Below, one piece after another: positions 29,218-31,887 of a DNA stretch of 64,000 nucleotides. Both the position numbers and the translations under genes were made by a program. Below the pieces are notes generated by a model. That model made no database searches, was not told the DNA's origin, and was given only the letters and a program-made list of their open reading frames with translations. This DNA is from Candidatus Woesearchaeota archaeon (GTDB taxonomy: Archaea > Nanobdellota > Nanobdellia > Woesearchaeales > UBA9989), in NCBI GenBank assembly GCA_013329045.1, contig DUKZ01000002.1, forward strand, positions 30,662-94,661. Reading direction: 5' to 3'. How positions within the stretch are numbered: position 1 is the stretch's first letter; each line of letters begins with the position of its first letter.

Positions 29218-31887
29218 ATGGCGGAAGGAATAAAACTCAAGGTCAGTGAAGCGATCCAGGACGATGTCAATAAGGGCATTGTCAGGATAGACAGCACCTT
29301 AATGTCAAGGATTGGTGTGAAGCCAGGAGACATTGTTGAAATAGAAGGGGCAAGGAAGACCGTCGGCATAGTTGACCGTGCATATCCCGGGGATATTGGC
29401 CTCAACATCATCCGGATGGACGGTATCATCAGAAGGAATGCAAAAACAGGCATTGGCGATCTTGTAGAAGTCATCAAGGCAGACGTCAAGGAAGCAAAGC
29501 GCGTCACTATCGCCCCTGCAAGGAAAGGCTTTCGCATCAATGCCCCATTGGAATGGTTCAAGCAGGGCCTCCTTGGAAGAGCTCTCGTCAAAGGAGACAT
29601 CCTCTCTCTTGGCGGGACATCAAGAAGAAGATCCACCATGTCATCATCGCCGTTCTTCGAAGAGATATTCTCCATGCTCAATGAGCAGCCAGTCATGCCA
29701 ATGGGTCTGGCTGATATCAAGTTCATCGTTGTTGAATGCAATCCCAAAGGATCAACCGTGGTGACTGACGGCACTGATGTTTCTTATAATCCAGAGGCAG
29801 TAGAGGTAGTAGAAGAGGCTGTCCCAGAGGTCACCTACGAGGATATTGGCGGCCTGGAGGAGGAGATAAAGAAAGTCCGGGAGATGGTCGAGCTCCCATT
29901 GAAGCATCCGGAGATCTTTGAGCGCCTCGGTGTTGAAGCGCCAAAAGGGGTTCTCTTGCATGGCCCGCCAGGAACAGGCAAAACATTGCTCGCCAAAGCG
30001 GTTGCAAACGAGACACAATCAAACTTCATCCTTATCAATGGCCCAGAACTCATGAGCAAGTATTATGGGCAGTCAGAAGCAAATGTCAGGAAAAAGTTTG
30101 AGGAAGCAGAGAAGAATGCTCCTTCAATCATATTCATTGATGAGATCGATGCGATCGCATCAAAGCGAGAAGAGCTCCATGGTGAAGTGGAAAAGAGGGT
30201 TGTAGCCCAGCTTCTTGCATTGATGGACGGCCTAAAGTCCCGGGGAAAAGTTGTAGTGATTGCGGCAACGAATATCCCAAACCAGCTCGATCCGGCATTA
30301 AGGAGGCCGGGAAGGTTTGACCGGGAGATTGAGATTGGCGTGCCCTCAAAAGAGGGCAGGCTCAACATTCTGAAGATTCACACAAGGAATATGCCCCTGC
30401 TCGTAGACCCTATTTCTATCAATGCTTCCTTTAGCAAGGAAAAGATCCAAGCTGGCCTCTCTGAGTTATTCACTCAATTAAAGCCAAAAGATATTGTCAG
30501 TTTAATTGGAAAGAAAGAGAAGGACAAAAACGAGCTCTTGGCAGTGTTCTCTGAAAGCCTAAGCGAACACATCAAGAAAAGTTTTCCAAAAGAGTTATCG
30601 CCAAGCACAAGGGAATTTGTCCGGTTGTGCGTGAATAAGATCACAGAGAGAATCATTGAGAGGGTTCGAGATAAGATTGAAGTGAGCGACCAAAAAGTTG
30701 TGCTCGGAGAGAGCATCAACGAGACGCTCGCAACAGCGCTCAGCGACCTTCGCACTGAAGGAAATATTGATGAGCTCATCGGCACCGTTGTGAGGGACTA
30801 CATTTTAGTTGAGATCAGCAGTATCACGCATGGATTTGTCGGCGCAGACTTATCATCCCTCGCAAAAGAAGGCGCAATGATTGTTCTTCGACGGTTGATG
30901 CCAGACCTCAATTTGGAAGAAGAAGAACCAATCCCAAAAGAGATGCTCGATCGCATGTTCATAACATTGAAAGACTTCAAGGACGCTTTGAAAGTTGTCA
31001 GGCCAAGCGCCATGAGGGAAGTGTACGTTGAGGTGCCAAACATCAAATGGAACCAGGTGGGAGGCTTGGATACTGCAAAGATGGAGCTCATCGAAGCAGT
31101 TGAGTGGCCCCTCAAGCGCCCAGAGGCATTCAAGCGCCTGGGGGTTCGCCCGCCAAGGGGAATTCTTCTCTATGGCCCGCCAGGCACGGGCAAGACCCTG
31201 CTGGCAAAGGCTGTCGCAACAGAAAGTGAAGCTAACTTTATTTCTGTCAAAGGCCCAGAGCTTCTCAGCAAATGGGTCGGGGAGAGTGAGAAGGCAGTCC
31301 GTGAAGTGTTCAAGAAAGCAAGGCAGACTGCGCCGACAATTATCTTCTTTGATGAGATCGATTCACTTGCCCCAAGAAGGGCGGCCAGCTCTGATTCCCA
31401 CGTCACCGAAAGGGTGGTCAACCAGCTCTTGACAGAGATTGATGGCCTCGTCGACCTCAATGATATTGTGATCATTGGCGCGACGAATAGGCCGGATATG
31501 CTGGATACTGCTCTTTTGAGACCGGGAAGGTTTGATCGCATCATCTTAACCCCTGCATCTGATGAAGCGGGCAGGCTAGAGACATTCAAGGTCCACACAA
31601 AGTCCATGCCCCTCGCAAAAGATGTCGACTTAACTGAAATTGCAAAGCAAACGCAAGGATATGTCGGCGCTGATATCGAGGCGGTGTGCAGGGAAGCGGC
31701 AATGATTGCTCTTCGAAAAGACATCAAAGCCCGTGAAGTGGCAAATGAGCATTTTGAGGAATCACTCAAGAAAGTAAAACCATCGGTCACAAAAGAGATC
31801 GAGAAAGCATACGCTTCATTGCAGGATTATTTCCGCTCCGCAAAAGGAAAGGAAATGAAGGACGAGAAGCCAAGCTATCTTGGATGA
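29218..31887 (+). CDS. cdc48: Cdc48/VAT-type AAA+ ATPase (two AAA domains) with about 125-aa insertion in D1 helical subdomain
   Basis: N-domain ([24 protein letters not shown]); D1 Walker [19 protein letters not shown]2 Walker [18 protein letters not shown], Walker B DEID x2, SRH; 889 aa vs about 745 aa typical. Confidence 0.9.

Follow-up and report, generated by a model that had tools for sequence, protein, structure and literature searches.

A Cdc48/VAT-type unfoldase encoded in the window (the whole 64,000-nucleotide stretch of DNA that was analysed) carries a real in-frame insertion of 129 amino acids in the lid of its first AAA ring, D1, and this insertion is predicted to fold as a compact domain of its own. 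The same D1 lid loop in orthologous genes holds one of at least six unrelated insert families, or no insert. The features of the locus, with the evidence used to place them, are as follows.

28603..29148, forward strand: small uncharacterised conserved ORF directly upstream of Cdc48, core ~115-150 aa
29218..31887, forward strand: CDC48/VAT-type double-ring AAA+ ATPase gene, 889 aa (ORF list, Pfam, TIGR01243, PDB match)
29218..29787, forward strand: N-terminal domain, aa 1 to ~190 (Pfam CDC48_N)
29950..30339, forward strand: D1 AAA large subdomain, aa 245-374 (Pfam AAA)
29962-29985 and 30139-30150, forward strand: D1 Walker A (GPPGTGKT) and Walker B (DEID) (motif search)
30343..30399, forward strand: D1 lid, first helix, up to and including IHTRNMPL (AF2 helix 378-388)
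30388-30390, forward strand: N391, which aligns with p97 N387 (IHTRNMPL / IHTKNMKL; in the PDB register, 527 = p97 393)
30400..30786, forward strand: inserted 129-aa domain (class A), aa 395-523 (boundaries from comparison with insert-less orthologs)
30628..30630, forward strand: Cys471, in the long helix of the insert
30676..30705, forward strand: beta-hairpin of the insert, aa 487-496 (AF2)
30787..30822, forward strand: native linker helix of the D1 lid, 12 residues, aa 524-535 (hhalign)
30823..30912, forward strand: remainder of the D1 lid, from the ten-residue stretch that starts at aa 536 through the long lid helix, aa 536-565
31162..31761, forward strand: D2 AAA and lid, aa 649-848 (Pfam AAA; AAA_lid_3 aa 802-848)
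31174-31197 and 31351-31362, forward strand: D2 Walker A and Walker B (motif search)

By its sequence, the host protein is a complete Cdc48/VAT unfoldase and an ordinary member of the CDC48/VAT family, as the initial annotation had proposed. The whole 889-aa protein scores 1067.4 bits against TIGR01243 (CDC48 family AAA ATPase, NCBIfam; cut-off 802.65) over aa 5-870, Pfam finds CDC48_N at aa 6-89 together with two AAA and two AAA_lid_3 domains, and the best PDB match is Thermoplasma VAT 5g4f (E 1e-240). Walker A motifs (GPPGTGKT) lie at aa 249 and 653 and Walker B motifs (DEID) at aa 308 and 712, and aromatic pore loops of the VAT type can be read in both rings (MSKYYGQSE, with KYYG, in D1; LSKWVGESE, with KWVG, in D2). 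Proteins of this family work as hexameric unfoldases and use their C-terminal tail to dock to the 20S proteasome; here the tail ends in PSYLG, of which Y887 and G889 are invariant among 57 relatives. A tblastn search with the D2 domain returned the same gene alone, and the window thus holds one Cdc48-like gene. The N domain has ~20-25 extra residues at aa ~135-165 (SPFFEEIF...), seen as a gap against VAT at query 135-165. These residues form a loop that aligns with the R155 region of p97, are kept in the consensus of the 57 relatives (Woesearchaeota-wide), and flank or include two stretches of low pLDDT in the full-length AF2 model (aa 132-138 and 156-163).

The initial annotation had reported an extra segment between IHTRNMPL (aa 387-394) and the ten-residue stretch at aa 536-545, and its coordinates and size were correct: 141 residues lie between these motifs (nt 30400-30822), where the comparable interval is ~11 residues in VAT, p97 and most close relatives. 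The interval is wider than the insertion itself, which the annotation had put at ~125 aa. The last 12 of the 141 residues match positions 32-43 of the insert-less D1 lid (NVNLKELANI) by hhalign and are therefore the native linker helix, which leaves a net insert of 129 residues (aa 395-523; nt 30400-30786). Against 5g4f, phmmer sets query residues 395-528 opposite VAT residues 377-385. Among the PDB matches listed, the p97, Cdc48, AFG2 and SPATA5 chains aligned across D1 are all broken at this site, and none of them has a matching insert.

Pfam, the PDB alignment and AF2 agree that the segment lies in the D1 alpha-helical lid, also as first annotated. It occupies the loop that joins the first D1 lid helix to the short linker helix, and it starts four residues past N391; AAA_lid_3 is matched by Pfam in two stretches, and the long D1 lid helix spans aa 542-563 in AF2. 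The D2 lid of the same protein has a normal, short linker, visible within a stretch of 23 residues, and the D2-lid linker is 12-13 residues long in 83 of the 108 proteins that allowed placement of both anchors. The reading frame runs unbroken through the D1 insert, and P0001, a partial protein from an independent ENA contig, is identical to the window's. The insert is confirmed as a real in-frame insertion.

These last two observations, with homologous inserts at the same site in ~16 other genes, argue against an assembly or annotation artefact. Inteins do occur elsewhere in the Cdc48 proteins of several relatives (Pfam intein and LAGLIDADG matches in proteins of 1218-1388 aa), which would speak for an intein or other mobile element here. 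The present insert, however, starts with LVDP and ends with IGTV followed by V, and lacks the Cys/Ser/Thr start and the HN end of an intein; it has no Pfam intein match, and its predicted fold is alpha-helical rather than HINT, which upholds the original view that it is not an intein. Direct repeats and a target-site duplication are likewise lacking in a gain/loss pair of related genes (P0048 and P0038, below), no repeats flank the insert in the window gene, and the DNA repeats within that gene are the expected D1/D2 paralogous motifs alone. The composition of the insert is not foreign (GC3 of 0.519 against 0.547 for the rest of the gene). The reading as an intein, mobile element or artefact is effectively refuted.

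A further conceivable source of extra length is duplication of an AAA lid, diverged past easy recognition. A relative offers a model for this, since in P0055 the site is filled by a 95-aa insert that matches the D2 lid of that same protein (BLASTP E 1e-11). For the window's insert there is a resemblance by eye between its motif (E/D)FxxxCxxKI and the lid helix GADLxxLCxEA, and a weak, below-threshold match to Pfam AAA_lid_4 (E 0.021). We consider this origin very improbable. Alignment of the class A inserts with D1 and D2 lid alignments (PF17862) by hhalign gives probabilities of 0.1-1.8%, and the insert finds nothing better than E 0.88 in BLASTP against the rest of the protein. Together with the identical independent contig, these values speak against the duplicated or mis-joined region that the initial annotation had named as a possible source of the extra length.

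Modelling by AF2 shows the insert as a compact, independently folding domain of five or six predicted helices and an optional beta-hairpin. Modelled alone from a 12-sequence alignment (A2), it has a mean pLDDT of 93.9 and a pTM of 0.86 (92.7-93.9 across five models), and in the full-length model the insert region has the highest values of the protein (pLDDT 90-94), although AF2 confidence on helical sequences is possibly over-optimistic. Helices are predicted at aa 407-420, 423-427, 437-454, 462-486, 500-512 and from 514 onward (residues 13-26, 29-33, 43-60, 68-92, 106-118 and 120-129 of the insert), the last of them continuous with the native linker helix, and the hairpin at aa 487-496 (residues 93-102) is gapped in about half of the class A sequences (alignments A2 and Aexp). 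The segment had been described as helical and charged. The first term holds, with the addition of the hairpin, and the second applies weakly, as K, R, D and E make up 32.6% of the insert and 29.8% of the rest of the protein.

Conservation among the inserts of this class is limited to helically spaced hydrophobic positions, an N-terminal DxDPxS(I/L) motif and Cys471, which lies in the motif (E/D)F(I/L)xxC(I/L)xK(I/V). In the initial alignment of 12 class A inserts no other residue than this cysteine is invariant, and the expanded alignment keeps it in 13 of 16 sequences. No polar constellation hinting at catalysis or metal binding was found in the class A alignment. The insert matches no Pfam family, and its predicted structure has no fold match. 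Searches of a 5.8-billion-protein index with the insert alone and with the 12-sequence profile also gave no matches, a result that is not evidence for absent homologs because the word index missed even the 100% identical P0001. The class A domain is a candidate new fold family, outside all described families.

The proteins closest to the host are Cdc48s from DPANN archaea that bear the label Woesearchaeota or Nanoarchaeota. Among the best 120 relatives, 80 have a linker of 13 residues at this position (counted between anchors that add two residues relative to the motif ends, so that the window protein scores 143), and ~30 have an insertion exactly here, with lengths that cluster near 85, 95-102, 134-145 and 159-167 residues. 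The insert is therefore not common to all archaeal VATs, and its absence from VAT, p97 and most DPANN relatives bears out the earlier suggestion that it is specific to a lineage. Among the 80 best-matching loci of GTDB species representatives, an insert of 83-220 aa is present in 63 of the 79 that were measurable, a proportion that is not a frequency because the ranking favours long matches.

The inserts were sorted into families by BLAST clustering and hhalign. Class A, to which the window's insert belongs, comprises 12 members and in addition L025, P0123 and a divergent pair, L035 and L040 (~16 in all). The 44 inserts of class B measure 83-90 aa, those of class C are coiled-coil-like and 160-220 aa long, and the rest fall into two smaller groups (D and E) or stand alone as several singletons. 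Class A and the L035/L040 pair are related (hhalign probability 73%, E 3e-5), whereas all other pairs of classes score below 18%, and neither method detected similarity between the insert classes. No Pfam family matches inserts of any class; those of class C have the look of long coiled coils, with sub-threshold coiled-coil Pfam matches at best. The pattern at this loop is wider than the single insertion first described, with at least six unrelated families that can be swapped, or lost, between close relatives.

Insert-bearing and insert-less genes occupy the same conserved locus, which indicates that the two forms are orthologs and, for the loci examined, rejects paralogy between them. The small ORF upstream adjoins Cdc48 in 67 of the 82 related loci (tblastn), whether or not an insert is present, and GatD/GatE lie downstream in many loci regardless of the insert. 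The upstream ORF itself (28603-29148) matched nothing in Pfam, NCBIfam or the PDB. A GatD tree stood in for the species tree. In it, the window falls together with two class A loci, L001 and the divergent L040, and with the insert-less L038; the sister of this group is a class B clade, within which L034 and L056, both of class C, are nested. A neighbour-joining (NJ) tree of the Cdc48 backbone is star-like and cannot alone count events of gain and loss.

Two pairs of relatives bear on turnover; the window gene has no comparably close relative among the sequences analysed. In the first pair, P0048, with a 153-aa coiled-coil insert, has a backbone 94.5% identical to that of the insert-less P0038, and the DNA is ~87.5% identical on both sides of the insert. 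In the second pair, the loci of L056 (class C) and L019 (class B) run collinear, at 88% nucleotide identity, for the 4.2 kb that precede the insertion point. Across the 380 codons ahead of the insert, amino acid identity is 97.9%, nucleotide identity 90.1% and identity at third positions of identical codons 76%. Beyond the insert the corresponding values drop to 81.7%, 72.6% and 44%, a comparison limited to 262 in-frame residues because the L056 locus has a frameshift. Other pairs of the same clade show 90-94% amino acid identity in the region after the insert. The L056/L019 pair is clearly a recombination mosaic, with a breakpoint at or near the insert. Judged from these alignments, insert modules have been exchanged or lost between close relatives, and sister species differ in what they carry.

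We propose that the window's insert is a peripheral accessory module beside the N-D1 interface, one that docks a partner or substrate or biases the N domain, and we hold the chances of this reading to be about even. By homology to p97, six copies of the insert would jut outward at the rim of the D1 ring, with the N domains alongside. In this place the module may dock a lineage-specific partner or substrate; alternatively, it may bias the N domain's position and through it the ATPase and unfoldase activity. In p97, N387 and the N-domain residue R155 are so near that a disulfide bond can link them, the ATPase is inhibited when the N domain is locked there, and disease mutations cluster at the N-D1 interface (PMC3318706). 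The p97 geometry may not transfer exactly, given the conserved extra 20-25 residues in the R155-region loop of these archaea.

Several of the comparisons above bear on how such a module could work. The N-D1 backbone stays 96-98% identical when modules are swapped, and the functional surface is therefore probably turned outward rather than packed on a co-evolved surface of the ATPase. Class A inserts are 14-28% identical to that of the window, whereas the rest of the protein is ~72-75% identical, which points to weak constraint on the surface of the module. Insert-less orthologs with backbones up to 94.5% identical to insert-bearing ones suggest that the module is dispensable for the core function, and the replacement of one unrelated module by another disfavours a single conserved role. 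An outward-facing surface, or no specific function at all, fits these data better than a tight co-evolved intramolecular interface, which we regard as unlikely.

The main rival, and a serious one, follows from the second of these options: the insert could be a tolerated passenger of a permissive lid loop, spread by recombination in the highly conserved flanks and retained since it does little harm, that folds but has no specific function. This is the less probable reading of the two in our estimate, yet much of the comparative evidence would fit it. Orthologs carry many unrelated inserts, or none, in the same loop; presence and absence occur on nearly identical backbones, as in P0048 and P0038; class A sequences are very poorly conserved; insert class and N-D1 backbone do not covary; the equivalent D2-lid loop of relatives occasionally has inserts as well; and the P0055 insert is a copy of that protein's own D2 lid. 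Against a passenger, DPANN genomes are small and yet carry these long inserts in most of the measurable loci, as ranked in favour of long matches. Class A inserts have also kept a foldable hydrophobic core and an open frame at ~20% identity, which suggests long-term purifying selection on the fold, and class B inserts show good conservation (those of L019 and L011 are ~80% identical).

The accessory-module reading can be set beside known systems, since inserts in the lids of other AAA+ machines play such parts. The window protein resembles VAT and p97 (TIGR01243) in its double-psi-barrel N domain, its D1 and D2 AAA domains with lids and its pore-loop aromatics in both rings, but has a predicted folded domain of 129 aa where these proteins have a short linker of ~7-11 residues. 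With the M-domains of ClpB/Hsp104 and ClpC it shares an accessory helical domain within the first AAA module of a double-ring unfoldase, a likeness at the level of the module. The ClpB/Hsp104 M-domain is a four-helix, two-wing extended coiled coil (motifs 1 and 2), whereas the window's insert fails the coiled-coil test; it is the class C inserts of relatives that share the long-coiled-coil appearance of the M-domains. In ClpB and ClpC the M-domains extend from the edge of the ring and serve for partner binding (Hsp70 or MecA) and for repression of the ATPase (PMC4436881, PMC5699869).

The post-alpha7 insertions of Rix7/NVL D1 and p97 D2 are also lineage-specific, poorly conserved and located in the lid of a Cdc48-family ATPase. 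That of Rix7 D1 lies after helix alpha7, consists of a short helix extension and an alpha7' helix of ~11 residues, touches the adjacent protomer, sits at the place of the p97 N domain, and is functionally important (PMC6355894). The window's insert differs in being a whole 129-aa domain located after the first lid helix and before the THGFVGAD helix. Small inserts in AAA lids are also found in Vps4, whose beta-domain binds the cofactor Vta1, and in Rubisco activase, whose specificity helix recognises Rubisco. These single-ring AAA proteins differ from the window protein in the fold, size and lid position of their inserts.

Such precedents also allow a reading in which the insert serves the hexamer itself, as a self-regulatory belt or assembly element whose six domains touch each other or the neighbouring protomer around the D1 ring. 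The inserts would then repress the resting ATPase, or stabilise the hexamer or higher-order stacks. The D1-lid location, the ClpB/ClpC M-domains and the Rix7 D1 post-alpha7 insertion (PMC5699869, PMC6355894) are consistent with this idea, as is the coiled-coil look of the class C inserts, with its sub-threshold Pfam matches. We judge it improbable, and well behind the passenger reading.

A bolder extension of the accessory-module reading, which we put forward tentatively as a rather unlikely one, is that the loop acts as a plug-in socket, in which unrelated folded modules (the class A bundle, class B, long coiled coils and others) are swapped between lineages through homologous recombination in the highly conserved flanks, under diversifying selection, and so retune an essential unfoldase. 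The selection might favour, for example, lineage-specific partners or substrates, or escape from antagonists in a symbiont-host-virus setting. If this were true, each module would retune recruitment or regulation, and the ClpB M-domain would have convergent counterparts in the coiled-coil modules.

In the literature on DPANN Cdc48, on Woesearchaeota AAA ATPases and on archaeal Cdc48 D1 insertions, we found no description of the insert. Interchangeable modules at one loop of an essential ATPase are an unusual evolutionary pattern. Cdc48/p97/VAT is a central and much-studied unfoldase, and regulation at its N-D1 interface underlies human p97 disease mutations. Natural insertion and swapping of domains a few residues from the equivalent of p97 N387 could show how much the N-D1 region tolerates, and natural insert variants could reveal how peripheral modules tune a double-ring AAA+ motor. 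To our knowledge, few archaeal Cdc48 cofactors have been described so far. If the modules turn out to dock partners, they would be a lead to unknown archaeal Cdc48 cofactors.

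The 129-amino-acid insert of the Cdc48 protein encoded in the window occupies a loop of the D1 lid that also carries additional sequence in a related protein recovered by database searches. This relative (P0055, 840 aa) carries a 95-aa insert (residues ~393-487) at the same D1 lid site, and BLASTP aligns this segment over 80 aa with the D2 lid of the same protein, at 29% identity (E = 1e-11). As judged from this alignment, the P0055 insert is a diverged copy of the protein's own D2 lid, and therefore internal duplication gave rise to at least one insert at the D1 lid site.

Insertions of ~55-70 aa are also present in the corresponding D2-lid loop, which lies between HTKxMP and TxGYVGAD, in a few relatives, namely the locus L056 (6001-9007), the protein P0042 and two or three others. 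The L056 D2-lid region contains a frameshift and a stop codon, which could reflect either a pseudogene or an assembly error. L056, which carries a coiled-coil-like class C insert, was also compared with L019, which carries a class B insert. The N-D1 halves of the two Cdc48 genes share 90% nucleotide identity (76% at third positions), whereas 3' of the insert this value is 73% (44% at third positions). The L056 gene is a mosaic, and this drop past the insert indicates recombination with a divergent donor, with its breakpoint at the insert.

Inteins are present in several related Cdc48 genes (proteins P0006, P0020, P0021 and P0029; loci L057-L059 and L065), whose products are 1218-1388 aa in length and match Pfam intein-splicing and LAGLIDADG families. 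These inteins are located elsewhere in D1 or D2, and not at the lid insertion site. A match of the insert profile to P0122 (355 aa) was rejected as spurious because this protein is a translated CRISPR repeat array whose repeated peptide, RFISTCVEKI, mimics the FISKCIEKI form of the class A motif around Cys471.

Two conserved features of the window Cdc48 lie outside the insert:

29620-29715 (aa ~135-165), an extra N-domain segment of ~20-25 residues, located in the loop whose p97 counterpart in the alignment is the R155 region
31870-31884, the C-terminal tail PSYLG at the end of Cdc48

The N-domain segment, across which AF2 confidence is low, is common to all Woesearchaeota-type Cdc48 proteins (consensus RRRxTMSxSPFFEDVFxML...). 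The tail conforms to a conserved PxY(L/M)G pattern, with Y887 and G889 invariant in 57 relatives. This pattern resembles the HbYX proteasome-docking motif, although its Tyr lies one position farther from the C-terminus.

Other ORFs of the window are as follows:

22679-25402, minus strand, a 906-aa ORF with no Pfam match at E <=0.001
25726-26888, plus strand, two neighbouring ORFs, one for a nucleotidyltransferase (NTP_transf_2) that has an HTH at its N-terminus and the other for a HEPN-domain protein, arranged as in an MNT/HEPN toxin-antitoxin-like pair
28603-29148, plus strand, a small ORF directly 5' of Cdc48, which shares its strand
32128-32457, plus strand, a 109-aa ORF between Cdc48 and the downstream gene GatD

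The 109-aa ORF has no family match, and it exhibits extreme Lys/Ala richness and strong GC and AT skew. Its product may bind nucleic acids as a basic, histone-H1-like protein. The ORF upstream of Cdc48 is annotated as 181 aa with a TTG start, and its conserved core comprises ~115-150 aa. Sequence searches of Pfam, NCBIfam and PDB yielded no match to its product. Among 82 related loci of Woesearchaeota/Nanoarchaeota, 67 have a counterpart directly 5' of Cdc48, whether the insert is present or absent, and the encoded protein may act as a Cdc48 partner.
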